In this document: piece after piece, positions 20,887-64,000 of the stretch
Numbering within the stretch: the first letter of the stretch is position 1
How the letters are laid out: the number at the start of each line of letters is the position of its first letter
From: an uncultured delta proteobacterium
GTDB taxonomy: Bacteria > Desulfobacterota > Binatia > UBA9968
Direction: 5' to 3'
NCBI GenBank assembly: GCA_963816145.1
Contig: CAWFJP010000029.1
Location: 352,001 to 416,000, forward strand
DNA: 64,000 nt
Made by a program: the position numbers and the translations under genes
The notes under the pieces: generated by a model
Database searches by the model: none
Seen by the model: only the letters and a program-made list of their open reading frames with translations
What the model was told of the DNA's origin: nothing

Positions 20887-20973
20887 TGGTGCGAGGAGCG
20901 GGATTTGAACCCGCACGCCGTTTCCGGCACTAGCCCCTCAAACTAGCGCGTCTGCCGATTCCGCCACCCTCGC
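20887..20973 (-). tRNA. tRNA-Leu(GAG)
   Basis: 87 nt GCGAGGGTGGCGGAATCGGCAGACGCGCTAGTTTGAGGGGCTAGTGCC...GGGTTCAAATCCCGCTCCTCGCACCA; long variable arm, encoded CCA, downstream of secG. Confidence 0.96.
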
Positions 20974-52102: not shown

Positions 52103-53485
52103 ATGTGCGATACAGCCGATGACGGCGTGGGGATCAGCGATTCGATACCGCGTGAATTGCAATTGCGCAATCGCGGATTGCGCACGGCGGATATTTCGCC
52201 GTTGATGCCGTTTGCCCGGACGCTGGCCAATTCGCGGGAAAACCGCGACAGCCATATCGGTTTTGTCGGCTACGACAAGACCAAGGCGGGCAATAAGATT
52301 CTGATCGCCATCGACCGCGAGTACGATCTCGACGTGCCCCACGCGGTGGCGGCGGCGCTGCGCGAGAAGGGCGCCCATGTCGATATCTTGGTCGCTGACA
52401 TGGGCAATCCCGACCGTGTGTTCGATTACACCGACGAAGTCGAAGTGATCATGCGGCGCGAACCCTGGGACAAAAATCCCCGGCGCTGGGAGGGGATGCC
52501 TTACATCGAAGACTTCGCCCTGCGCGGCGGCTACGATCTGTTGATCCACGGCAAGGGCGGACCGATTCCGAAAACCGAGTTCCGCTACGAACAGATTCCC
52601 TGGCTGCGCGCCGAGCATTTCTTGCAGCGCTCGACGACCTATCCGCTCGATCTGCATCTGCTGATCAACAAGAAAACCTGGGACCCGATCTGGGAGTATG
52701 GACGCGGCGGGCGTGCCCGGCTGACCGACGCCGAAGGCACGGATCTCTCCTGGACCTATTGGGATGAATATTACGACGGCACGCGCTACGGCTTCTCGTC
52801 GACACCGCGCAACGGCCATCTATTCGGCCATCCGGTGCCGCCGATCATCGCCAAGGAAGACGCCGCCGGCGTGGTGGCGGGGACGACCAGCCATTTCTCG
52901 AAGGCGTTTCCGCAAGTTAAAGTCGAGTTGGAGGGCGGCCAGATCGTCAAAGTGCACGGCGGCGCAGCCTACGGCGACGCTTGGCGCACGTTATTGGACG
53001 AAAGCCGCAATACCAAGTATCCCTGCTTCCCGCGTCCAGGACTGTTTTACCTCTGGGAAGTGGCCATCGGGACGAATCCTAAGATCATGCGGCCGAGCGG
53101 CATCGAGAAACATTCTTCCGGCGGTTTCGAGTGGGAGCGGCGCCGTTCCGGCGTGATCCACATGGGCTTCGGCACACTGTGGCGTTCCGATGAAGAAAAA
53201 TGGGCCGGCGAGAACGGCATTCTCTACGGCCATCTGCATATTCACTTGCTGTTCCCGACCTTCAACATCACGACCACGAGCGGCAAGGAATACACCATCA
53301 TCCGCAACGGCAGGCTTACGGCGCTCGATGATCCGGAAGTGCGCAAGCTCGCCGAGAAATACGGCGACCCAGACGATCTCTTGCGCGAAGACTGGGTGCC
53401 GCAGATCCCCGGCATCACTGCGGCCGGTTCGTACGAAGACTATGCGCGCGAGCCGGGGAAGTGGATCTATTCGAAAAGTGCGTGA
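52103..53485 (+). CDS. Hypothetical protein, possibly M29 aminopeptidase/NicX-like metalloenzyme fold
   Basis: GGAGG RBS; EGTDL, EVAIGTNP, GVIHMGFG, H.H.HL motifs. Confidence 0.6.
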   Translation: MCDTADDGVGISDSIPRELQLRNRGLRTADISPLMPFARTLANSRENRDSHIGFVGYDKTKAGNKILIAIDREYDLDVPHAVAAALREKGAHVDILVADMGNPDRVFDYTDEVEVIMRREPWDKNPRRWEGMPYIEDFALRGGYDLLIHGKGGPIPKTEFRYEQIPWLRAEHFLQRSTTYPLDLHLLINKKTWDPIWEYGRGGRARLTDAEGTDLSWTYWDEYYDGTRYGFSSTPRNGHLFGHPVPPIIAKEDAAGVVAGTTSHFSKAFPQVKVELEGGQIVKVHGGAAYGDAWRTLLDESRNTKYPCFPRPGLFYLWEVAIGTNPKIMRPSGIEKHSSGGFEWERRRSGVIHMGFGTLWRSDEEKWAGENGILYGHLHIHLLFPTFNITTTSGKEYTIIRNGRLTALDDPEVRKLAEKYGDPDDLLREDWVPQIPGITAAGSYEDYAREPGKWIYSKSA

Positions 53486-53620
53486 TCCTGTTGGTGGCTC
53501 GTGCTCGCACTCGTTTCGGACAGAGTGGCAATCATTAGCACAAACGGACCGTGCGACGGCGAGCTAATGTCCCTTTCTGGGATGGTTGAAATCCCTTGCC
53601 TTCAGGCGAAGAGAGGATTT

Positions 53621-53704
53621 GTCATGCCGGCGAAGGCCGGCATCCATCTTCGGTTTCGTTGGCAGGCCAAAGAAGACCTGGATTCCGGCCTACGCCGGAA
53701 TGAC
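53621..53704. repeat. REP-like inverted doublet (same family as 50012-50095, opposite orientation)
   Basis: GTCATGCCGGCGAAGGCCGGCATCCA ... TGGATTCCGGCCTACGCCGGAATGAC. Confidence 0.85.
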
Positions 53705-53817
53705 GAAAGGAAGAGTCGACTTCTAATCGACGAATTCAGAACCCGTCGCCTTGGAGCGGAGGGTCATTCAGCTGACTTCGAGCACTGACTTTTTGCAAGG
53801 TTGCGCTAATTACCGTC

Positions 53818-54162
53818 GTGAAGCTGCCTTACGGTGCCAAAGCCATCGCCGATATTCGAAAAGTGCGGGATTATTGCCTGAATCCGGACAACCCGCGGGG
53901 GCGACATAAAGCAAGAGTGTTCAAGACCGCGATCGGGTATACCTCCAATGACGCGGCTAAACTTCGACGCAGGTTGCTCCAGGCTGCTGAGGCCGGCGAC
54001 GCTCAACAACGAGAACTTGATCTCTACGGGCAGCGCTATACCATAGACTTTGAGATTCAAACGGAAATTGGCCAGGCTACGATACGAAGCGGCTGGATCA
54101 TTTTGCGGGGCAGCCGTTTTCCTCGGTTAACAACTTGTTATGTGACGAAGCGGGGGCGCTGA
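53818..54162 (+). CDS. DUF6883-like putative toxin
   Basis: MKLP..A..DIRK.RDYCLNP..PRGRHKARVF...YGQRY...W....PRLTTCYV; coupled to the next gene. Confidence 0.7.
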   Translation: MKLPYGAKAIADIRKVRDYCLNPDNPRGRHKARVFKTAIGYTSNDAAKLRRRLLQAAEAGDAQQRELDLYGQRYTIDFEIQTEIGQATIRSGWIILRGSRFPRLTTCYVTKRGR

Positions 54163-54392
54163 TGCAGAAGCGGAAAATCAAGTTGCTCGACACAGTTGCA
54201 TTGGTGAAGGACATTCCATCGAGGAAACTGAAGCGCGGCGAGGTAGGCACTATTGTGGAGATTTTAGCGCCGGAGGTTTTTGAGGTCGAATTCTGTGATG
54301 AGGACGGGCAAACCTATGCGGAGTTGGCGCTGCGCGCTGACCAGATCATCCCGCTCCACAATCGCGGCGATGCCCTGAGAATCGTCGCGTAA
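54162..54392 (+). CDS. DUF4926 family protein (putative antitoxin)
   Basis: LLDTVAL.KD...LKRGEVGTIVE...FEVEF.DEDGQTYA. Confidence 0.82.
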   Translation: MQKRKIKLLDTVALVKDIPSRKLKRGEVGTIVEILAPEVFEVEFCDEDGQTYAELALRADQIIPLHNRGDALRIVA

Positions 54393-54644
54393 ATCGCGCG
54401 ACCGGGCGGGATTTGCCCAGCCAGTCAACAATGTTCAGGGTGTTCGCCTCACATCCATTGTGCTGCTCCATGCCATGACGGCAAATCGCCATAACGAGCG
54501 GGCTCGGCAAAGAAATTACGAATCCCTAACGATTTAAGTTTTTGTCTGATTTGTGACGATGCGGGGTCGCCGCCGCATTGAGATTACAAACTTTGAACTC
54601 GTAAAAAAGACGGACTGGACGACGATATTGAGCTTCGATGTTGT

Positions 54645-54660
54645 ACATCAATATTGATGT
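54645..54660. promoter_or_regulatory. Palindromic operator upstream of RelE-XRE pair
   Basis: Perfect 16-bp palindrome ACATCAATATTGATGT, 9 nt before the toxin ATG. Confidence 0.65.
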
Positions 54661-54669
54661 TGTAGCGTT

Positions 54670-55023
54670 ATGGAATTTGCGGTAGAGTTTTACCAGACGG
54701 CATCGGGAAGGCTCCCGGTGCAAGAGTTCTTGGATGATCTCAAGAGCAGCGATCCTAACGATTTTGCAGCGGTGGTCGCGGGGCTCGCGAAGTTGCGTGA
54801 CAGCCGATATCACCGCGAGCCGTTGTCCAAGGCGATTGGCGGTGGACTGTTCGAACTCCGCCATGTGGGCAAGCTGAACACTCGGGTGCTATGGTATTTC
54901 ATGAAAAATCGGCGGATTATTTTGCTCCACGGAATTCGCAACAAGGCGCGAGCAATAGCGGCCCGCGATCTGGCGACTGCCAAGGAGCGCATGAACGACT
55001 GGCAAAATAGAGCCGCACGATGA
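54670..55023 (+). CDS. RelE/ParE (Gp49/HigB-like) toxin
   Basis: VEFYQTASGR.PV.EFLD, GGGLFELR, RVL.YF...RIILLHG..K. Confidence 0.85.
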   Translation: MEFAVEFYQTASGRLPVQEFLDDLKSSDPNDFAAVVAGLAKLRDSRYHREPLSKAIGGGLFELRHVGKLNTRVLWYFMKNRRIILLHGIRNKARAIAARDLATAKERMNDWQNRAAR

Positions 55024-55388
55024 AAAAAACCAATTTCGATCGTTACCTCGACCGTCAAATGCAGGATTCGGCGTTCGCCGCCCGCTTCAAAGACGCCGGC
55101 GAAGCATGGGATGTCGCTATGCAAATTGCCGCGCTACGCAAGCAGGCCGGGATTTCCCAAAAACAACTCGCCAAGCTTCTCCGAACGTCTCAACAGCAAG
55201 TCAGCCGTCTGGAATCTCCGAGCTACGAGGGGCACTCGCTGAGCATGCTGCGCCGCGTCGCCGATGCGTTGCACGCCCGCATTCGAGTCGTCTTCGAAGC
55301 AACACCATCGTCCGACAGGATGTCGGTAGCGGAACACCCAGCGCCCTACCGTAGAGCCCGCCGCGTGGGCAAACGGCATGGATACTGA
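55020..55388 (+). CDS. XRE-family HTH antitoxin
   Basis: LRKQAGISQKQLAKLLRTSQQQVSRLE..YEGHSLSMLRRVADAL; ATGA overlap with toxin. Confidence 0.85.
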   Translation: MKKTNFDRYLDRQMQDSAFAARFKDAGEAWDVAMQIAALRKQAGISQKQLAKLLRTSQQQVSRLESPSYEGHSLSMLRRVADALHARIRVVFEATPSSDRMSVAEHPAPYRRARRVGKRHGY

Positions 55389-55454
55389 CACTGTTCGAGA
55401 CTCTTTCAGCCCTAATCGAATGGGTGGAATGCGCTTGGCGATTCCCGTAAACGA

Positions 55455-55498
55455 CTTGAACGGAGCGCAGCGGTTGAACGTTGTGAACCACTTGAACG
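55455..55498 (+). repeat. TGAAC repeats at 9/18-nt period
   Basis: TGAAC at 55457, 55475, 55484, 55493. Confidence 0.7.
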
Positions 55499-55500
55499 GC

Positions 55501-56235
55501 TTGGTTGTTAAGTTTGTCACGCTTTGCCTCGCCAGCCTGGTTTTCGTCGCCGGCTGCAACGGCGGCGAAACGCCGTACGGGGGTCAAGACTGGCAAGCGC
55601 AGCGCCAGCGCATGGTGCACGAGCAGCTGCGCGGGCGCGACATCGATAACGCGCGGGTTCTCGATGCGATGCTCGCGGTGCCGCGTCATCTGTTCATTCC
55701 GGAGTCCGAGCGCGGCCGGGCCTACGGCGACTTTCCCGTGGCGATCGGCCACGGCCAGACGATCTCGCAGCCTTATATCGTGGCCTTCATGACCCAGGAG
55801 TTGGCTGTCGAGCCCAGTCATCGCGTGCTCGAGATCGGCACCGGCTCCGGTTATCAAGCGGCCGTGCTGAGTCTCCTCGCCAAGGAGGTGTATACCATCG
55901 AGATCGTCAGCCCTTTGGCCGAGCGGGCGCGCGAGACCCTCGCAAGCCTCGGCTATCGCAACGTCGAGGTGCGCGCCGGCAATGGTTACCTCGGCTGGCC
56001 GGAAAAGGCGCCCTTCGACCGCATCATGGTGACAGCCGCCCCGGACGAGATACCGGCGCCCTTGATAGAGCAGCTCAAAATCGGCGGCTTAATGGCGATC
56101 CCGGTCGGCACCGATAGCCAGGAACTGCGCATCCTGCGCAAAACCCCGGCGGGAATGGTGACGCTCAGAACGCTACCCGTGCGCTTCGTCCCTATGACGG
56201 GGAAACCTCCGGCCGCGGGTGGCGCGGCTAAATAA
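55501..56235 (+). CDS. pcm: Protein-L-isoaspartate O-methyltransferase with lipoprotein-like N-terminus (start uncertain)
   Basis: VPRHLF, GQTISQPY, VLEIGTGSGYQAA, APFDRI.VTAA, VRFVPM; FVAG-C lipobox. Confidence 0.92.
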   Translation: MVVKFVTLCLASLVFVAGCNGGETPYGGQDWQAQRQRMVHEQLRGRDIDNARVLDAMLAVPRHLFIPESERGRAYGDFPVAIGHGQTISQPYIVAFMTQELAVEPSHRVLEIGTGSGYQAAVLSLLAKEVYTIEIVSPLAERARETLASLGYRNVEVRAGNGYLGWPEKAPFDRIMVTAAPDEIPAPLIEQLKIGGLMAIPVGTDSQELRILRKTPAGMVTLRTLPVRFVPMTGKPPAAGGAAK

Positions 56236-56382
56236 AGTTCTCGATGAAAAATCCGGAAGAGCTATCTATTTTTATGGGCTTAGCGTCTGCGGTTCGCGCT
56301 GGTATCGCCGCTATCGATTGTCGGCTTTCGGCCGGTGGCGGTTTCGACGCCTGCGTAAATTGACGATTGTCACGCGACGGTT

Positions 56383-56409
56383 TACGTGGAGCTAACGGAT
56401 TATCACTGA
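56383..56409 (+). pseudogene. Last 8 codons of a deleted HigB toxin
   Basis: YVELTDYH-stop 13 nt before higA; HigB proteins typically end V(E/D)xxDYH. Confidence 0.55.
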
Positions 56410-56422
56410 TTCGAGGTGCGCG

Positions 56423-56737
56423 ATGACTATTCGGAATGATAAGCAGAGAATCGTTCAACCTACCCATCCGGGTGAAATGCTACGTGAGGATTTCCTGCCC
56501 GACTATGATTTGAACGTAACCAGTTTTGCCAAGGCGCTCGGCGTGTCGCGTCAGACGGTCAATGAATTGCTGCGCGAACGCCGGGCCGTGAGCCCAGAAA
56601 TGGCACTGCGTCTTTCTCGCTTGTTCGGTAATAGTCCTGAGTTTTGGTTGAACGCTCAGCGTGCTGTGGATCTTTGGCAAGCGGCAAGAACCATGGGGAG
56701 GAAGATCGAGAGGATCTCGCCGTTGAACGCCGCGTAG
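56423..56737 (+). CDS. higA: HigA family antitoxin
   Basis: PTHPGEMLREDFL, SPEMALRLSRLFGNSPEFWLNAQ. Confidence 0.92.
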   Translation: MTIRNDKQRIVQPTHPGEMLREDFLPDYDLNVTSFAKALGVSRQTVNELLRERRAVSPEMALRLSRLFGNSPEFWLNAQRAVDLWQAARTMGRKIERISPLNAA

Positions 56738-56795
56738 TAACGCGCTCGGTTCAGAAGGATTCTGCTGAATAGATGGGCTCATAAAAAAGTCGCAC

Positions 56796-56991
56796 GGTAA
56801 AGTCCACATGGAATCGTTTCTAAGCGATTCGAATATCGACGGCACCATCTTTGAGCCGCTACGAGACCCGGTAATCTTCGCCCAAGCCCAAGTCGTACTG
56901 GGGGCGGTCCAGTGGCCCAACGGCGCCGATCTGGCACCCGATGCTGATGTATGATGCGATCCGCGAACGCGGTGTATGGTTTTTGGATTAA
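56796..56991 (+). pseudogene. DUF2442-like remnant (5'-truncated, frameshifted)
   Basis: GTIFEPLRDP..FAQ....GAVQWPNGADLAPDA, then +1 shift to MYDAIRERG. Confidence 0.7.
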
Positions 56992-57084
56992 AGCTCGTTT
57001 AAACGGCGGACAGAAGGGCGATGAAAAATCAGGTGCTGCAACAAAGTGCTTGTGTCTGTCGTTTAAGGTTCGAATCGATGATCC

Positions 57085-57196
57085 TATCCCGGCCGGATCT
57101 GACCTTGAACTCTTGAACCGACCACGGACCCCAATTAAAACATTCCGTCCGTCCTGAGTAGGTCGCAAAGACCGTATCGAAGGGCTGGAACGGACC
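57085..57196 (+). repeat. Mosaic spacer repeat A (44-bp core at 57143-57186)
   Basis: CCCCAATTAAAA..TTCCGTCCGTCCTGAGTAGGTCGCAAAGACCGTATCGAAGGGCT plus TTGAAC units. Confidence 0.9.
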
Positions 57197-57461
57197 GAGT
57201 GCTACTTACGAAGGCAATTTTACCGGTGAAAATGACGCTCTAAGGCTCCAAAACACAGTTGAATGGGATGAAAACGGTACGATTTCTGAGAGTTAGGCGG
57301 GCGACCCGGAGAGACGGATGGCCGACCCGGAGAGAATGTCAGACCCCTGGGATGACCTGTTCTCTACTCTACCCGAAGGTGCCGCCGACTCCAGTGGAGC
57401 GAAGAAAATTTGCGTCGAGCCATTGCCGCGCATTTTGTAGTTTTTGAGGGTTGAAGATTTG

Positions 57462-57773
57462 CTACGCGGCGCGGCGGCCCTTGGGTGCTTCGATGGATGC
57501 GAGACTGAGCTTGAGCTTAAATGGCTTTAGCAGCCGGTTGAGCGTTTCCTGGGTCGGATTGTGGCGCGGATGGATCGCCCGCAGGATGTTAGGACTGGCC
57601 ATGCCGACTTTCGTCGAAAACTCTTTGATGCCGATGGCGCGGATAACTTTGCCCAAGGCGATCTGAATCGACACGCCCTCCTCGATGGCCGCCAAGAGAA
57701 ACTCACGAGCGAAAACCGCGTCACGCAGATCCTGAGCCAAACCAACGTTCCAATCCCTACTGCGCCGTGCCAT
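57462..57773 (-). CDS. Addiction-module antidote HTH protein
   Basis: LRD..FAREFL.AA.EEG...ALG.VIRA.G...HNPT..TL..LL; overlaps the toxin stop. Confidence 0.8.
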   Translation of the reverse strand: MARRSRDWNVGLAQDLRDAVFAREFLLAAIEEGVSIQIALGKVIRAIGIKEFSTKVGMASPNILRAIHPRHNPTQETLNRLLKPFKLKLSLASIEAPKGRRAA

Positions 57774-58095
57774 GTTTCACCTCTTTTCTAAAGTCATTCC
57801 AGTAACGTTTTGCCGCGCTGATATCGTTGGATTGCGAGGCTTTGTCGCCACCGGCCAAAAGCAAGATCATCGAGACGCCCTCTTTGCCAAAGTAGAGACG
57901 GTATCCCGGTCCGAAATCCAGGCGCGCTTCCCAGACACCGCCACCGACGGCTTTGTGGTCGCCGAGATTGCCGTTCTCGAATCGCAGCACTCGCGCTTGA
58001 ATGCGCGCTTGCACGCCGACGTCGAGACTCTTCAGCCAAGTCCGGAAGGGACTTTTCCCTTGCGCTGTTAGGTACTCTCGGACGGTCAGTTTCAT
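57757..58095 (-). CDS. RelE/ParE addiction-module killer toxin
   Basis: GKSPF..WL, GNLGDHK.VGGGVWE.R.DFGPGYR.YF, LL.GGDK. Confidence 0.9.
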   Translation of the reverse strand: MKLTVREYLTAQGKSPFRTWLKSLDVGVQARIQARVLRFENGNLGDHKAVGGGVWEARLDFGPGYRLYFGKEGVSMILLLAGGDKASQSNDISAAKRYWNDFRKEVKHGTAQ

Positions 58096-58108
58096 GCTGC
58101 CTGTAAGT

Positions 58109-58122
58109 TATCATATATGATA
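58109..58122. promoter_or_regulatory. Palindromic operator upstream of the killer-antidote pair
   Basis: Perfect 14-bp palindrome TATCATATATGATA, 13 nt before the ATG at 58095. Confidence 0.6.
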
Positions 58123-58152
58123 GTAATCCCTCTGTCGAGAGAGAAAGTTCAA

Positions 58153-58376
58153 ACCCGGGTGCTTATTCAAGCCGTCAAGCGCAACTTCAGATGATATCCT
58201 CCAATAAGGATTTAGCTCGCAAGCTTGGCGCCTTAGAGCGCAAAGTGGAAAGCCATGACGTCCATATTCGATCGCTCTTTGAAGCGATCCGCCAGCTTAT
58301 GACGCCGCCGGAGCCCAAGAAGCGCAAGATCGGCTTCCTGGTCGAAGAGCGCGCCGCGCGCTACGGCAATCGATAA
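58153..58376 (+). pseudogene. Internally deleted ORF6N-family DNA-binding protein
   Basis: TRVLIQAVKRN (ORF6N-like core) joined out of frame to the C-terminal LARKL.ALE.K..HD..I..LFEAIRQLM.PP..KKRKIGF. Confidence 0.7.
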
Positions 58377-58452
58377 CCGGCGTTTGTCTCCGCGTTTTCG
58401 AAATTGCGGCAACGTGGAAGTTTCCCAACAATCTGCAGCGAAGCGCAGCCAG

Positions 58453-58660
58453 CGTTGAACTCGTTGGAACGATGCTAGGGAGCCGGACCGCTGGAACCTA
58501 TGGAACGACTGGAACTGTTGGAACCGCTCAGTCCCTGAGCGGTGTTTGATCGGATAACGCCTTGAACGGACCCCAATTAAAAAACTCCGTTCGTCCTGAG
58601 TAGGTCGCAAAGACCGTATCGAAGGGCTTGAACGATTGGAACGGAGCCAGTTTCTTGATT
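58453..58660 (+). repeat. Mosaic spacer repeat B (TGGAAC tetrad 58492-58524; core 58585-58628)
   Basis: Direct sequence identity to repeats A, D and E. Confidence 0.9.
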
Positions 58661-58791
58661 AGAGTTAGACGGGTCCGATCCGGAGAGCTGAGGCTTGGCA
58701 TCACCATCTCGATTCGCGTAAGATAAGCTTTGTCAGTGGAGTTCAAGAAAAAAGATTTTGCGTCGCTACAAGGCAACGGCCATTTGATTTA

Positions 58792-59091
58792 ATGGGTGTC
58801 GCTGTGGTTTTTGAACGGTTGGTATTTCGAGTTCACGCGATTCAGCGCGTGTACCAACGAAGTATCAGCGAACTGGAAGTCCGGTATGTGATCGCCACCG
58901 GAGAAATCATTGAAGATTATCCCGATGACACCCCTTAACCAAGCCGTCTCTTGCTTGGGTGGCATAACAATAGACCCCTTCACATCGTCGTGGCAGATAA
59001 CTTCGACGAAAAGGAACATGTCATCATCACGGCCTATGTACCCGATTCCGATGTTTGGGAAGCTGATTTCAAAAGGAGAAAGACCTCATGA
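58792..59091 (+). pseudogene. DUF4258 family toxin with an internal TAA
   Basis: FRVHAIQR...GEIIEDYPDDTP-TAA(58936)-PSRLLLG...RPLHIVVA...IITAYVPD...W; stop overlaps the next ATG. Confidence 0.82.
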
Positions 59092-59315
59092 AATGCGTCA
59101 TTTGTAAAAAGGGTGAGACCCGGCCTGGCAAAGTCACAGTCACCTTGGATAAAGAGGGGGCCACTCTAGTTTTCAGAGGCGTCCCCGCGAGTATCTGCTC
59201 GAATTGCGGTGAAGAGTACGTAGACGGAGATATCACCGCGAGCTTGCTAGAATCTGCAGCCGAGGCCGCCCGATCAGGTATCGAGGTTGAAGTCCGCCAG
59301 TACGGCGCCGCCTAG
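59088..59315 (+). CDS. YgiT-type zinc finger / MqsA-like antitoxin
   Basis: MKCVICK.G...VF.GVPA.ICSNCGEEY. Confidence 0.88.
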   Translation: MKCVICKKGETRPGKVTVTLDKEGATLVFRGVPASICSNCGEEYVDGDITASLLESAAEAARSGIEVEVRQYGAA

Positions 59316-59334
59316 GAGATGGAGATCCTTAAAG

Positions 59335-59510
59335 CGTTCGAACGGAACCCGTCCGACTCCGTCGTTGAACGCTTGAACCCTTGAACAGACTCCCCCCGCG
59401 ACCCCGCCCGAATCCGACCTTGAACTGTTGAACGATCCTAGGACGTCTGACCGCTGGAACCTGTGGAACGATTGGAACTATTGGAACGGCCCCTATTCAT
59501 AGAGCCCTTC
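59335..59510 (+). repeat. Mosaic spacer repeat C (TGGAAC tetrad 59455-59487; no 44-bp core)
   Basis: Shares CCCGCCCGAATC with D, GACCTTGAACT with A, and a similar post-tetrad tail with E. Confidence 0.85.
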
Positions 59511-60163
59511 CGGCCGATTGAAGTTCGTGACCCCGAAGGGATGGGCGCAAGAGTTTTGCTTCGGCCGCATCCCGATCAATCAGGCAGATCGCCCACGCAT
59601 GTCAACCTCACAGTAAAACAGGCGTTTTCGCCTTGCCAGGTTAGCGCTCGCTGGCGCAAAGTTTTCCCCAAGATTTCTCTCAGTCGCGCGATTGTTCCGA
59701 TGACCTTGCGCAGCTGACGGGTGGTATTGAAGCTGCAATACCACCAAGCGATGACGCTCACATTCATCGATTCGGAACGAACTGTGATCCCGGACGCGCC
59801 GTTGGCGAGCGCGCGAAAGTCGCCGCAGGGATGGGTGAGTGCCGGGGTCGGAATTTTCTGTTCGGCAGTGGAGGTCGCCGCCGTGCTTTTGGTTTTTCTT
59901 GGCGTGTAAAGCAATAACCGTGCTCTCGGCCATAGCTATGATTCCAGTATCTATGACACGCGTATTCAGAGTTCTATCGATGGCTCCCGGCGGAGCAAAG
60001 CGGTGTTAGATTTCCTTTGCAGGACTCACGATGCCGATGAGACCCAACGAATGTCCGAAACTTGATTGCACCGACCGAACCACGTCCAGCGGGTTTTCAA
60101 GACCCAGGACGCGTAGTTATCCACGCGGGTGCATAGACAGTGCACGACAACCAGGGAGGATCC

Positions 60164-61201
60164 ATGAGCGGCGTTTACGATAACAAGGCCAGGGTGCCGA
60201 GGGCGCCGCAGCGCGGCACAGTTGATTCCACGGCTTTGGTTCCATTGACCAGCGGTTGCGCTGTGAACCTGCGCGGTGAAATGGAAGACTTTGAACGATT
60301 GATCGGAGAGCGGATCGGCAAGCTGAAGGCGGCGGTCACCGAACGCGAAGCGGCGCTCGCCATCGGGACCGAGCAAGCCGAAAAACTCGTTGAGGGTCTG
60401 AAGGCGAGCACCGCCCAACTGGAGGCAACCCTCGCGCAGACGCGAGAGACCGTGGCGCGGAATGATGCCGAGCGCCGGCAAATGGAAGAAAGTCTCACCA
60501 CGAAGATCACCGCTTTGCAGCATGATCTAGGCAGCAAGGATGAGGCGCTGGCGCGCCGCAATGAGGAGAACAACGATCTCAAGTCCGTTATCGAACGCGG
60601 CAAGGAACAGGTCGAAGCGCTGGAGTTCAACCTTAACAAAACCGAAGAGACCTTACGCGCAAAAGAAGCAACCATCCAAGGGCTCGAACAAGAGCTGTCC
60701 GGCAAAATCGAAGAGTTCCAGGGAGTGCTGAATATCAAAGAAGGGCTGCTGGCGGGTCAGGGTGCGGAGATTAACGATCTCAAGTCGCAGGTAAAAGTGT
60801 TGACGAAGGGAATCGCCGAAATGTCCAGCTTCTTTCGCCAAGCGGAAGCTTTCGTCGGCGTGGACCAGGAAGCGGTCGGTGCCGCCGGGCCCGACAAGCC
60901 CGCCGGTAAACCACTCGAGAGTCCGATCAAAACCCAATCAAATGGCACGAAAGAGACTGCCGCGGTTGCAGAGCGCCGGGGCGAGACCGTGTCAGCGGAT
61001 TACTTTCAGCCGATAACCATGGAGCTCGCCGACATCACCGGCGTGATGCCCCCCTTGGCGGCGTTAATCGTCAAGGACCATGTGACCGCGCTCAACGAAT
61101 CCATGGAACAATTTCCCAAGAAGCGCCTTCAGGAACTTTTCGCAAGCCTCGCCAAAGAATATCCCATGAAAAACGGCAGAACCATTCATTCCGCCATTTA
61201 G
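60164..61201 (+). CDS. Long coiled-coil hypothetical protein with a small helical C-terminal domain
   Basis: GGAGG RBS; about 190 aa of E/K/L-rich heptads; C-terminal MPPLAALIVKDHV.AL.ES...FPK.RL. Confidence 0.7.
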   Translation: MSGVYDNKARVPRAPQRGTVDSTALVPLTSGCAVNLRGEMEDFERLIGERIGKLKAAVTEREAALAIGTEQAEKLVEGLKASTAQLEATLAQTRETVARNDAERRQMEESLTTKITALQHDLGSKDEALARRNEENNDLKSVIERGKEQVEALEFNLNKTEETLRAKEATIQGLEQELSGKIEEFQGVLNIKEGLLAGQGAEINDLKSQVKVLTKGIAEMSSFFRQAEAFVGVDQEAVGAAGPDKPAGKPLESPIKTQSNGTKETAAVAERRGETVSADYFQPITMELADITGVMPPLAALIVKDHVTALNESMEQFPKKRLQELFASLAKEYPMKNGRTIHSAI

Positions 61202-61371
61202 CCCGGCACGGGTAAATCCGCGCATCACGCGGTTATCGACTCGCCGGGTTTGATAGTCGAAGACCAAGGCATGTATTAGCTTGCCGAAGCGGTGCTGTTC
61301 TCTATCAACCCGCAAACAGCTCAGTCGTGAAACTGGTGCGGAAACGAAAAGCCGCGTCGGTCCAAGGCAAA

Positions 61372-61686
61372 CCCTTTTGAACAGACCCCGGTCGGTAAAC
61401 CCGCCCGAATCTGTTCTTGAGCGCTTCTTAATCGATAACCCCTGGAACCTATGGAACGACTGGAACCATTGGAACGGTAGCCTTCCGAAACTGTCGTGAA
61501 CCCTTGAACAGGATTTAGTCAGGTAACGCCTTGAACGGCCCCAATTAAAGACATTCCGTTCGTCCTGAGTAGGTCGCAAAGACCGTATCGAAGGGCTTGG
61601 ACGATTTGAACGGCTAGCTTCCGGTTTTGAACCTTTGACCGATTCAGCAAGGTCTAACCGCTGCAAGCTGTGGAACGATTGGAAGA
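61372..61686 (+). repeat. Mosaic spacer repeat D (tetrad 61443-61475; core 61554-61597)
   Basis: Direct sequence identity to repeats A, B and E. Confidence 0.9.
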
Positions 61687-61774
61687 ATAAGGCATGACGA
61701 AACGGTCCCACTCTTGAGCTGGACGGGCGGGGCCGACCCTTTTCATCCCAATGCGCCTGATATATTATTCCGGC

Positions 61775-61954
61775 ATGGCAAAACGCGCTCAACCTCTGTC
61801 ACATTCGCGCATCTCTCCAGTCATCAAAGGCAAAGAGCGGTTGACGATCTGGGAGAGGGCGCGCGGCCGGTGGAAGAAGCGAGAGGCCGACCCGATTCAG
61901 GAATTGAAGAAGATGCGCAGGTCGTGGACGAAGAAAAGCCCATCCCTCCACTAA
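61775..61954 (+). CDS. Putative VapB-like antitoxin
   Basis: 59 aa directly abutting the PIN gene; RGRWK...DP...K.MR..W pattern. Confidence 0.6.
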   Translation: MAKRAQPLSHSRISPVIKGKERLTIWERARGRWKKREADPIQELKKMRRSWTKKSPSLH

Positions 61955-62326
61955 GTGTACACTCTCGACACCAACGCGATCGTTTATTACCTGAAAGACG
62001 ATACCGACGCTGTTGCCGTTTTGCGCGGCGTCTTCGCGCAAGACGCACCCATCTACGTCTCGGCGGTTACGGAACTAGAGCTATTTGCGTTTGCCAACCT
62101 GAGTCGTGATGAGGAATCTCTGATCGAAGACTTGCTGACGACCGTCTCCGTCATACCTGTGGACTCGCGCATTGCCCGACTCGCCGCTCTCATGCGAAGG
62201 CACTACCGAATCAAAGTCCCGGACAGCATTATCGCTGCGACGGCGATATTTACCGGCAGCACACTACTCACCCGCAATACGCGGGACTTCCGAAAGATAC
62301 CGAACCTTGCGATACGCAAGATTTGA
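61955..62326 (+). CDS. vapC: VapC/PIN domain toxin
   Basis: LDTNAIVY, SAVTELEL, PDSIIAATA, LLTRN.RDF. Confidence 0.9.
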   Translation: MYTLDTNAIVYYLKDDTDAVAVLRGVFAQDAPIYVSAVTELELFAFANLSRDEESLIEDLLTTVSVIPVDSRIARLAALMRRHYRIKVPDSIIAATAIFTGSTLLTRNTRDFRKIPNLAIRKI

Positions 62327-62487
62327 GGGCCAACAACGTCATATCGCCAGCGGTGGTCAAAGAGCCACCCAGCCGCGTTGGCAGAATTCCGCAAATAAAG
62401 AATCACGGCACCTGCGTTGCCTTCGGCAGGGGGCACGCTTTTGTTGCGGCACGGGGGAGAATTCAACGAGCCGCCGTGTTTCCGGCC

Positions 62488-62742
62488 TTGAACCCCTTGA
62501 ATGTTTGAACGGAACTACGAATTCTAACCGCTACTAAAAAATTCCGTCCGTCCTGAGTAAGTCGCAAAGACCGTATCGAAGGGCTTGAACGATTTGAACA
62601 GAGCCAGTTCCTTGATCACGAACACGGCCGTTCCTCCCATCCTCCCCGAATCTGAACGTGTGAGCGCTTCTTGATCGGTACCCCCCTGGAACCTATGGAA
62701 CATCTGGAACCATTGGAACGTCCCCTGTACAATAGAACCCTT
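62488..62742 (+). repeat. Mosaic spacer repeat E (core 62542-62585; tetrad 62687-62719)
   Basis: Direct sequence identity to repeats A, B and D. Confidence 0.9.
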
Positions 62743-63037
62743 GCCACCTCCCCGCCGATTCCAGTAGAGTGACGAAAATTTCGGTCGAGTCATTCCCCGG
62801 AATTCTTCGTTTAGAGCGGAGCGCCAGTCCCCAGATTTGCCAAGCTAAGTCGAAGGACATGGCTTTAATGTTTTGCGGGAATGGAATCCGTAACTCGGAT
62901 GGGTGATTCTAAGTTTCGGGTATCGTGTCGATCGGTATTCCTAAACTGACGGGTAAAATTGTTACTGGCAATGAAGGTCGTGTAGTAAGACTCTAACCCC
63001 GACGCCCTGATTGCGTTAAGCAAATTAAGCAAATCGT

Positions 63038-63526
63038 ATGGCCGAGCTTACGTTGAACGAGATTCTCGACACTGTCGGCTCCGTGCAGAGCGCCTATCAC
63101 AAATTGGTAATCCTTGCCGGTTCACCGGGGTCCGGCAAGACGCGGTTGTTAAAGCAGCTAGCCGAGCAGCTTAATCTGCCGGTCATTAACCTAAGTCTGA
63201 AAATGAGCGAAAAACTCTTGAGTTTGACCAAGCGCCAGCGTCAATTGAAGGCCGGGGAGATCGCGATAGACGTGATTGACGAGCAGGACGGGCGCAGCGT
63301 ATGCCTGGACAATACCGAATTACTATTTGAATCGACCTTGCGCCTGAATCCGCTCGTTTTTCTCCAGGATATTTCGCGCAATCGCCTCGTCGTATCGTCG
63401 TGGAATGGAACTTATGATGGCAAACATTTGAGCTTTGGCTACCACGGTCACCCTGACTTTTTTCAGCAGGCACCAAGCGGATACCCTGTCTTTTCCGTCT
63501 CGGACAACCAGGTTGAAAGGATTTGA
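63038..63526 (+). CDS. brxF: BREX type 3 P-loop protein BrxF
   Basis: YHKLVIL.G..GSGKT, INLSL.MS..LL, LDN.ELLF...L.LNPL..L..ISRNR..V..WNG, Y..HPD. Confidence 0.85.
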   Translation: MAELTLNEILDTVGSVQSAYHKLVILAGSPGSGKTRLLKQLAEQLNLPVINLSLKMSEKLLSLTKRQRQLKAGEIAIDVIDEQDGRSVCLDNTELLFESTLRLNPLVFLQDISRNRLVVSSWNGTYDGKHLSFGYHGHPDFFQQAPSGYPVFSVSDNQVERI

Positions 63527-63530
63527 ACTA

Positions 63531-64000
63531 ATGAAATACAGCGAGCTGATCCAGTTTCAACCAATCGAATCCGTTATCGAGCTTCGCCAGGCGAACAAAC
63601 TCGATAAGGCGAAAGAACACGCCTCGACCTATGTCATTTCCGACGAGATGGTTAGAAGGCTCTCCGATCTTGCCATCCCCAATCTTCAGTTCGCCACGCC
63701 GCAGGATAATCGAGGCCTATTAATTGTCGGGAATTACGGCACCGGCAAATCCCATTTGATGTCGGTCATTTCGAGCGTAGCCGAAAACAGCGAAATCCAA
63801 CCACTTTTGACCAACGAGAATGCGCGTAAAGCCGTTTCGCCGATCGCGGGAAAATTTAAGGTCATTCGCTTGGAGATCGGCGCCACGGAAATGTCTCTCC
63901 GAGAAATTATCACTGGTCACTTGGAAGAAGGCCTTGCCCAGTGGGGCGTAACATTTCAATTTCCTGCCGCTGATAAGATTCGCGAGAACAAGACCGCCTT
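63531..64000 (+). CDS. brxC: BREX type 3 BrxC/PglY-like ATPase (DUF6079), 3'-truncated by the window end
   Basis: Not in ORF track; MKYSELIQFQPIESVIEL...YVISDEM...GLLIVGNYGTGKSHLMSVIS...GKFKVIRLEIGA; open to the window end. Confidence 0.85.
   Translation, partial: MKYSELIQFQPIESVIELRQANKLDKAKEHASTYVISDEMVRRLSDLAIPNLQFATPQDNRGLLIVGNYGTGKSHLMSVISSVAENSEIQPLLTNENARKAVSPIAGKFKVIRLEIGATEMSLREIITGHLEEGLAQWGVTFQFPAADKIRENKTA

Follow-up and report, generated by a model that had tools for sequence, protein, structure and literature searches.

Towards the right end of a 64,000-nucleotide stretch of the genome of an uncultured Binatia bacterium (assembly GCA_963816145.1, contig C29; this whole stretch is referred to as the window), an array of toxin-antitoxin (TA) modules is punctuated by five intergenic repeats, named A to E (Table 1). 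Our analysis indicates that these repeats are probably mosaics of two extragenic families with no specificity for TA genes, comparable to bacterial interspersed mosaic elements (BIMEs) and housed in a strain-specific defence island. The element would then be a variant of a known repeat type and not an undescribed integron-like platform. An earlier, sequence-only reading of this DNA had found no described counterpart for the repeat architecture; however, the core of the repeats is a palindrome of the GTAG-tagged repetitive extragenic palindrome (REP) kind that also occurs in other phyla, and the arrays that accompany it are found throughout the bacterial family.

Architecture of the repeats

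Repeats A to E are real, all lie on the plus strand and are assembled from common modules, as the sequence-only reading had described. They are layered from a core of about 53 nt, tandem TKGAAC arrays with a period of 8-9 bp and smaller common linker modules, and an alignment of 13 copies gives the module order array - linker - core - linker - array, in varying combinations. Such repeats occur far above chance, with reversed-pattern controls returning 0-1 matches per genome. The left 3.5 kb of the TA array, comprising four modules (53.8-57.0 kb), is free of repeats of the A-E type.

The core consists of an outer stem P1, the invariant strand GAGUAG, a variable and covarying hairpin P2, the invariant strand CGUAUCGA and the returning strand P1'. 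In similarity matches from congeners, the flanks CCYGAGTAG and CGTATCGARGG are constant while the hairpin varies in sequence and keeps its pairing. Among 141 distinct instances, P2 positions 1-3 are paired in 93-99%, compared with about 47% when partners are shuffled, and use four or five pair types; P1 positions 1-4, the outer-stem pairs beside the loop, are likewise paired in 93-99%, with the closing pair alternating between U-A (81) and C-G (50). An ungapped alignment of 41 sequences (alignment A1) has 94.2% of its cells paired, against 76.7% after shuffling (none of 500 shuffles reaches the observed value) and 36-60% when the strands are slid. These covariation sets were chosen with GAGTAG and CGTATCGA fixed and thus test pairing only, not the conservation of the loop. 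Within this genome, GAGTAG abuts the hairpin in 12 of 14 copies, the remaining two reading GAGTAAG and GAGTGG, and among relatives found by similarity it is absent from only one of the 12 core alignments shown, that of L033, which is the weakest.

Distribution of the core

A covariance model built from alignment A1 identifies 14 cores across this genome, with four in the window, six on contig C18, three on C1 and one on C4. Thirteen of them are located in three defence/TA islands (on C29, C18 and C1), and the C4 copy lies between a Usp and a CN-hydrolase gene. One hairpin sequence is common to all 13 island cores, and relatives carry other hairpins. The cores of this genome are intergenic and, in the window, stand downstream of plus-strand genes; the window cores all point in the plus direction, those of the C1 island all in the minus direction, and five of the six on C18 in the minus direction. 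Between them, the C18 and C1 islands hold PIN, RHH, MqsA/DUF4258, NERD, HEPN/nucleotidyltransferase, Fic, ORF6N, CopG, DUF2442/DUF4160, restriction and Druantia-like genes. The C18 island (104-137 kb; L001, L002) is a second, larger defence island that has cassettes in common with the window, and contains fragmented type I/III restriction genes, a DruA-like/DDE transposase pair, NERD, HEPN/nucleotidyltransferase and PIN/RHH genes, and an intact DUF4258/MqsA pair.

Beyond this genome, a pattern scan of the genomes of 185,579 species returned 64 loci with the core motif, spread over many phyla. The carriers include Chloroflexota (Kouleothrix, Caldilineaceae, Anaerolineae, Roseiflexaceae), Binatia, 'Deltaproteobacteria', Eisenbacteria, Latescibacteria, Lentisphaeria, Herbaspirillum, Hydrocarboniphaga, Alphaproteobacteria and others; for the window's own core subtype, the nearest named carriers are metagenome-assembled genomes (MAGs) labelled Candidatus Binatia. 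Because GAGTAG was fixed in the search, finding it conserved in this cross-phylum set is no independent test. A shorter core pattern gives 361, 124 and 21 copies in three other genomes (reversed control, 0), and many of these copies are inverted dimers spaced 50-70 bp apart. In the 124-copy alphaproteobacterial genome, such dimers lie beside oxidoreductase, hydrolase and dehydrogenase genes, and a look for a hidden transposase between neighbouring dimers there returned only metabolic genes. Nineteen loci from congeners and similar MAGs comprise about six with TA/defence neighbours and about 12 with metabolic ones, among which NMT1-type binding proteins are prominent; as read from the coordinates, the copies of relatives are mostly 25-150 nt 3' of a gene and in sense orientation. 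The enrichment of the repeats at TA and defence genes that the sequence-only reading anticipated holds for this genome, in cores and arrays alike; in other genomes the core is not confined to such genes, and many of its neighbours are metabolic.

A more complex form of the motif was also seen, in which a tandem double unit is enclosed by one longer outer stem, GAGTG...TGTATCGAAG preceding a canonical unit (L052, L056, L060, L063, L066); its hosts are Eisenbacteria, Latescibacteria and a gammaproteobacterial MAG.

The TKGAAC arrays are a general extragenic family

The second layer is far more abundant. In this genome, 269 arrays with at least three units were counted, and 255 of them are intergenic (compared with 21% of random sites); only 12 of the 255 occupy divergent gaps, and those in tandem gaps begin at a median of 24 bp after the upstream stop codon, all of these placements resting on a crude gene caller made for this analysis. 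Thirty-seven inverted pairs, (GTTCMA)n...(TKGAAC)n, some of them enclosing another palindrome, have the look of terminal inverted repeats. Each of the 36 family genomes scanned contains the three-unit pattern (a count that takes in the unpublished genomes G005 and G035); the pattern gives single matches in two of five genomes of a second family and is absent from all 19 of a third, a sister family, while the reversed controls gave 0-1 matches. By our own count, 23 of the 269 arrays fall within the three islands, about 0.3% of the genome; the arrays are thus enriched there without being restricted to these islands.

In sequence, the array unit is similar to the 3' tail of the core's outer stem, which contains GAAC, and at Kouleothrix loci the core is flanked by GAACC arrays with an 8-bp period that match the core's own tail. 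This parallel suggests that the arrays may derive from the core element or be its targets. The Kouleothrix aurantiaca contigs in which the core sits inside long GAACC arrays are L046, L047, L071, L078, L080, L088, L091, L093 and L095. A third extragenic family, the palindrome CCCCCACCTCTTTCCTCCCCCGC...GCGGGGGAGGA...GGAGGGGG, was noticed inside some inverted TKGAAC pairs (C11:241878-241985, C27:39952-40077 and C1:380049-380201).

Comparison with REPs and BIMEs

According to the text of PMC3733652, GTAG-tagged REPs are known from 8 phyla in 24 families, lie downstream of open reading frames (ORFs) and form dimers and clusters, with one family gathered at a small number of loci and some families mixed in among repeats of other kinds. 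The core shows features given there for this superfamily, namely a palindromic stem-loop with compensatory changes, an unpaired GTAG beside the stem and many extragenic copies after ORFs. As far as that text describes GTAG-tagged REPs and BIMEs, the likeness extends to the imperfection of the palindrome, the placement of the unpaired GTAG 5' of the stem, the mostly 3' position relative to ORFs, the copy numbers that reach hundreds and the inverted dimers seen in certain genomes, and the clustering with other short modules. We liken the core to the GTAG superfamily by these described features and do not assign it to one of the 24 published families. As in BIMEs, REPs and other short conserved motifs are clustered in one intergenic space, whereas the alternating orientation of REPs that marks BIMEs is missing. 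Also unlike REPs and BIMEs, the partner module of the window core is a tandem array of 8-9 bp TKGAAC units, and unlike GTAG REPs, the core has two further parts that are conserved across phyla, the outer stem P1 and, on the 3' side, the invariant strand CGUAUCGA.

Neisserial intergenic mosaic elements are a further point of comparison: they are mosaic blocks of short repeat families near variable genes and are thought to promote recombination. The window repeats differ from them in sequence and lineage, and gave no sign of being targeted by a phage integrase.

Several observations weigh against the assignment to REP-derived mosaics. The window cores are co-oriented singles, whereas REPs and BIMEs typically form inverted dimers. 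It is also unusual for REPs to be confined to defence islands, as 13 of at least 14 copies are here, and this confinement is explained only by inference; moreover, the covariance-model search scored 150 of 2999 first-look candidates, and weak copies elsewhere may be missed. The 6-nt and 8-nt loop strands, invariant across phyla, go beyond what the text of PMC3733652 says of REPs. Lastly, no REP-associated tyrosine transposase (RAYT), the usual mobiliser of GTAG REPs, adjoins any copy checked; the same text records that not every REP family has a RAYT.

The search for a mobilising enzyme bears on a related explanation, in which the repeats are still-transposing non-autonomous elements, similar to REP doublets (REPINs) or miniature inverted-repeat transposable elements (MITEs), that pile up in defence islands where insertion is tolerated and delimit cassettes as a by-product of insertion, not of cassette movement. 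We regard this as unlikely, although it has several points in its favour. The sharing of one hairpin by all 13 island copies, with others in relatives, would indicate recent amplification in this genome; hundreds of inverted-dimer copies exist in other genomes; the 37 array pairs bracket variable inserts much as terminal inverted repeats do; and the genome has seven Y1-transposase-like ORFs (Y1_Tnp). However, no Y1 transposase was found flanked by the core or the arrays: none of six Y1 ORFs checked has flanking TKGAAC arrays, and by coordinates no core lies within about 10 kb of the Y1 ORFs. Elsewhere, one of about 93 core loci has a Y1-like ORF in its vicinity, at a distance of 3-7 kb; in two high-copy genomes the Y1 matches have no core closer than 1.5 kb, and the 124-copy genome is without a PF01797 match. 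No pair of an empty and a filled site was encountered, no search aimed at such pairs having been made. In addition, a 750-bp tract shared between islands (see below) spans the core together with genes, which fits segmental copying better than the insertion of a small element.

Could the core instead be a functional RNA specific to TA/defence loci, whether regulatory, antitoxin-like or self-processing, that acts on the neighbouring cassettes? Covariation of P1 and P2 around invariant loop strands speaks for such an RNA, as do the sense-strand hairpin loops, which are rich in purines and in many cases GNRA-like, the excess of G-U-compatible pairs over A-C mismatches in the core stems (114 G-T versus 62 A-C) and the usual position 3' of a gene in sense orientation. 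We nevertheless hold it to be extremely unlikely: the folding energy of the core is ordinary and uninformative (z -0.9 to +1.0), other genomes carry the core on both strands in inverted dimers beside unrelated metabolic genes, and no Rfam family matches. Searched at the gathering threshold, the whole window yielded only a tRNA; the 56.5-63.5 kb interval yielded nothing at E<=5, and eight loci of other phyla gave only chance-level matches at E<=1. A hammerhead or other ribozyme, prompted by CUGAGUAG...CGAA, was ruled out on account of the missing third stem, the different order of the core and the lack of an Rfam match.

A variant that departs further from known repeats takes the core as an unrecognised structured motif shared across phyla (GAGUAG-hairpin-CGUAUCGA) and as the substrate of a non-RAYT enzyme processing single-stranded DNA or RNA, whose activity would confine the element to defence islands in this genome and move units made of core plus gene from one island to another. 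The invariant, asymmetric loop strands between covarying P1 and P2, and the arrays copying the GAAC tail in at least two distant lineages, speak for such a motif. Literature queries with the loop strands as strings returned only primers and unrelated papers, and Figure 1 and the supplements of PMC3733652 could list the motif. We consider this proposal decidedly unlikely.

Under the preferred reading of A to E as BIME-like mosaics, the repeats would be transcribed into 3' untranslated regions, where their stem-loops may stabilise or insulate the upstream message as classical REPs do; such a role is suggested by the position, the sense orientation and the G-U-compatible pairs of the core together with the established function of REPs. 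Their co-orientation would arise because the genes that they trail are mostly on the plus strand. At the same time, the dispersed copies would offer homology through which cassettes could be moved and lost among the three islands by ordinary homologous recombination or gene conversion, and a dedicated cassette recombinase would not be needed. If this reading is true, the region is an ordinary defence island and carries the caution that repeats lying in one orientation between TA genes are not necessarily sites of recombination. What would remain of interest is a REP-like family whose loop strands are identical from Chloroflexota to Proteobacteria, with no RAYT found beside it, and family-level TKGAAC arrays that mimic the tail of the element. 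The confinement of the core to three cassette-sharing defence islands also makes it a tractable case for repeats shaping the turnover of defence genes.

A strain-specific island next to leuC

The repeats lie in a 25.6-kb strain-specific insertion that comprises the TA array, a bacteriophage exclusion (BREX) type 3 system and BrnT and runs from window position 53.49 kb to C29:431,060; window 53.5-62.8 kb is its TA half. The island fills an intergenic gap between a conserved 460-aa gene on the left (52103-53485) and leuC on the right (start at C29:431,074). Orthologs of the 460-aa gene with 88-95% amino acid identity over the full length occur in about 15 congeners, and 27 of 31 genomes have a match at E<=1e-20, a count that takes in the window genome (G000) and the unpublished G005. 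The site is free of the island in all five congeners examined (G029, G014, G003, G017, G019), which were picked for long contigs out of 26 with a match to the 460-aa gene; in each, leuC follows the 460-aa ortholog after about 0.1-0.7 kb. In G017, the empty intergenic site has a short GTTCAA array directly after the stop codon. The N-terminus of the BrxC-like gene was found in none of 30 congeners.

These comparisons support an accretion-type island, and of the accretion platform proposed by the sequence-only reading, this part stands, with the island absent from five of five congeners; its integron-like nature does not, in view of the missing attC features and the location of IntI on another contig, C15. 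Like other defence islands with BREX type 3, the region groups its TA modules with the genes of that system (BrxF, BrxC-like, methylase, SNF2 helicase and PglZ_3), occupies a conserved intergenic hotspot and is missing from relatives.

At the left edge of the island lies a dispersed repeat of about 207 nt that is unrelated to A-E. It has two internal GC-rich hairpins, its copies are 70-96% identical and lie on more than 20 contigs, and its summed contig depth in four metagenomes is about 100-fold that of its neighbours.

Exchange of cassettes between islands

Several segments are common to the three islands at 80-95% identity. The clearest comparison is between the unit of core plus DUF4258/MqsA and its paralog on C18 (122.5-123.3 kb), which are 94-100% identical over 58563-59312, 68-76% identical in the flanking array modules and 32-56% beyond. 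This is the 750-bp tract referred to above; it ends inside repeat B on one side and at the start of repeat C on the other, with identity decaying stepwise through homologous modules. Such a profile fits homologous recombination or gene conversion via the repeats. A second segment, the vapB-like one (61627-61949, 91%), starts in repeat D but stops where vapB meets vapC.

Wetland and soil sequencing runs contain 42-64% of the words of the 64,000-nucleotide stretch. Metagenome contigs from four runs, aligned at 90% likeness, end at the repeats, and nine repeat-to-repeat joints listed among them have sides of only 22-46 nt. These joints may stem from other copies or organisms and provide no evidence for excision or for the circular junctions that the sequence-only reading had suggested searching for. 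One solid variant was found: a 1522-nt contig, with a side of 255 nt, joins 53044-53475 via 179 other letters to 54616-55382, and is thus without the 207-nt repeat and the DUF6883/DUF4926 module, its breakpoints lying outside A-E. Cassette turnover consequently occurs both at and away from the repeats, since the tract shared with C18 is bounded by repeats B and C while the breakpoints of the metagenomic variant are not in any of them; the anticipated placement of breakpoints inside the repeats holds for the first case and not for the second.

Repeats A-E compared with integron attachment sites

The sequence-only reading took the repeats as recombination or targeting sites for the capture and loss of TA cassettes. 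In its full form, this explanation has the repeats as dedicated sites of integron-like cassette capture, served by an enzyme encoded elsewhere, for example one of the IntI on C15 or a single-strand DNA enzyme, that would insert and excise TA cassettes at the core or array; we judge it very unlikely. Its attraction lies in the placement of 13 of 14 cores in three TA/defence islands, the co-orientation of the repeats within each island and the common cassette of 94-100% identity with its boundaries in repeats. It also draws on two full-length IntI genes on C15 (184057-185001 and 202187-203131; 468 and 466 bits, cut-off 265), which are 18 kb apart and both have TKGAAC arrays 0.5-1.5 kb upstream of them. 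Those arrays stand immediately upstream of small genes and are regarded as belonging to the general extragenic distribution. Like the cassette arrays of sedentary chromosomal integrons and clusters of attC sites lacking integron integrases (CALINs), the TA array has small, mostly co-oriented, TA-rich units with co-oriented repeats between them and no integrase inside it, and an integron integrase is encoded elsewhere in the genome.

However, the repeats do not have the form of attC sites, which are imperfect inverted repeats of 55-140 nt, carry R'' (RYYYAAC) and R' (GTTRRRY) and fold into one hairpin. Unlike integron arrays, A-E are without the R''/L''-L'/R' inverted-repeat architecture and without an element-spanning hairpin: whole-element folding gives z -1.3 to +2.5, no better than shuffled, whereas two attC-like sites near intI give z of about -2.0 to -2.6 on the plus strand and -1.3 to -2.0 on the other. 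Attachment sites of the attC-like form (…TAAC…GTTAGGC) lie 3' of one of the intI genes, with a canonical attC at C15:190497-190546 and a second attC-like site near 188,235. A crude scan for R''/R' and inner complementarity returned only the canonical site genome-wide and none in the three islands, its sensitivity being low: even in relaxed form it misses at least one visible attC-like site, and stricter thresholds had earlier given no matches. With no IntI on C29, the array would be compatible with a CALIN only if it had attC sites, which it does not.

Nor does a site mark the 3' end of every cassette, as part of the array (53.8-57.0 kb) is repeat-free and repeat C is without a core. The wider distribution is equally unlike that of integron arrays, for the repeats flank ordinary genes genome-wide and in other phyla: the core reaches 21-361 copies beside ordinary genes elsewhere, about 12 of 19 congener and MAG loci are metabolic, and the arrays are generic extragenic repeats. 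The one cassette indel has its breakpoints outside A-E, and the identity between the shared tracts decays gradually through array modules with no single stop point. In agreement with the sequence-only reading, no integrase or transposase domain was detected in the segment by hidden Markov model (HMM) scan, and contig C29 has no match to PF00589 or TIGR02249; no recombinase is present in the 25.6-kb insertion.

Genes of the island

Nearly all the TA modules and remnants listed by the sequence-only reading were recovered by HMM or homology (Table 1); the exceptions are its 'HigB remnant' (56219-56395) and the VapB-like ORF, neither of which has an HMM match. No intact partner toxin for the HigA-family antitoxin was detected in the HMM scans.

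Table 1 Features of the TA array, its repeats and the adjoining BREX genes (window coordinates).
Feature	Position	Strand	Basis or remarks
Left island junction	53486-53564	.	Homology to congeners stops at the stop codon of the 460-aa gene
Dispersed repeat, ~207 nt, unrelated to A-E	53565-53771	+	Left island edge; ~90 BLAST copies genome-wide
DUF6883/DUF4926 pair	53818-54392	+	HMM
Gp49 (RelE/HigB-like) toxin and XRE-HTH antitoxin	54670-55388	+	HMM
pcm (protein-L-isoaspartate O-methyltransferase, PCMT)	55378-56235	+	HMM
HigA-family antitoxin	56423-56737	+	TIGR02607, 109.5 bits
DUF2442 remnant	56778-56988	+	Truncated and frameshifted; spans residues 45-114 of C1 paralog
Repeat A	57085-57205	+	REP-like core 57142-57194
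Antidote of RelE/ParE killer	57462-57773	-	HMM
RelE/ParE-family killer	57757-58095	-	TIGR02683, 107 bits
ORF6N C-terminal remnant	58188-58373 or 58376	+	Residues 117-175 of 175 only
Repeat B	58445-58660	+	TGGAAC array 58492-58524; core 58584-58636
DUF4258	58792-59088	+	Full length, 97% identical to C18 paralog; in-frame stop at codon 49
YgiT/MqsA-like antitoxin	59088-59315	+	HMM
Repeat C	59330-59495	+	Arrays 59365-59386 and 59455-59487; without core
Coiled-coil protein gene	60140-61201	+	HMM/homology
Repeat D	61385-61690	+	Array 61443-61475; core 61553-61605; degenerate further array to 61684
VapB-like ORF	61751-61954	+	Without HMM match
VapC PIN toxin	61955-62326	+	HMM
Repeat E	62480-62730	+	Core 62541-62593; array 62687-62719
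BrxF	63038-63526	+	NF033453, 145 bits (cut-off 50)
DUF6079/BrxC-like gene	From 63435, beyond window end at 64000	+	HMM

The TA array abuts a BREX system, as had been noted, and the system is of type 3: BrxF and the BrxC-like gene at the window's end are followed, past it, by an N6_N4_Mtase methylase, an SNF2 helicase and a type 3 PglZ (PglZ_3; NF033449, 691.8 bits, cut-off 250), so that all components of the type were found. Unlike in usual BREX type 3 islands, the BrxC-like DUF6079 frame appears split, with profile positions 1-621 and 1071-1238 falling in separate ORFs about 1.2 kb apart (63435-64000 and L004 1-3250). Because of this apparent split, the BREX type 3 system may be inactive. The right part of the island also holds two small minus-strand genes, one of which encodes the BrnT toxin. 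Outside the island, the tRNA gene that is the sole Rfam match in the window has a long variable arm and lies at 20890-20973 on the minus strand.

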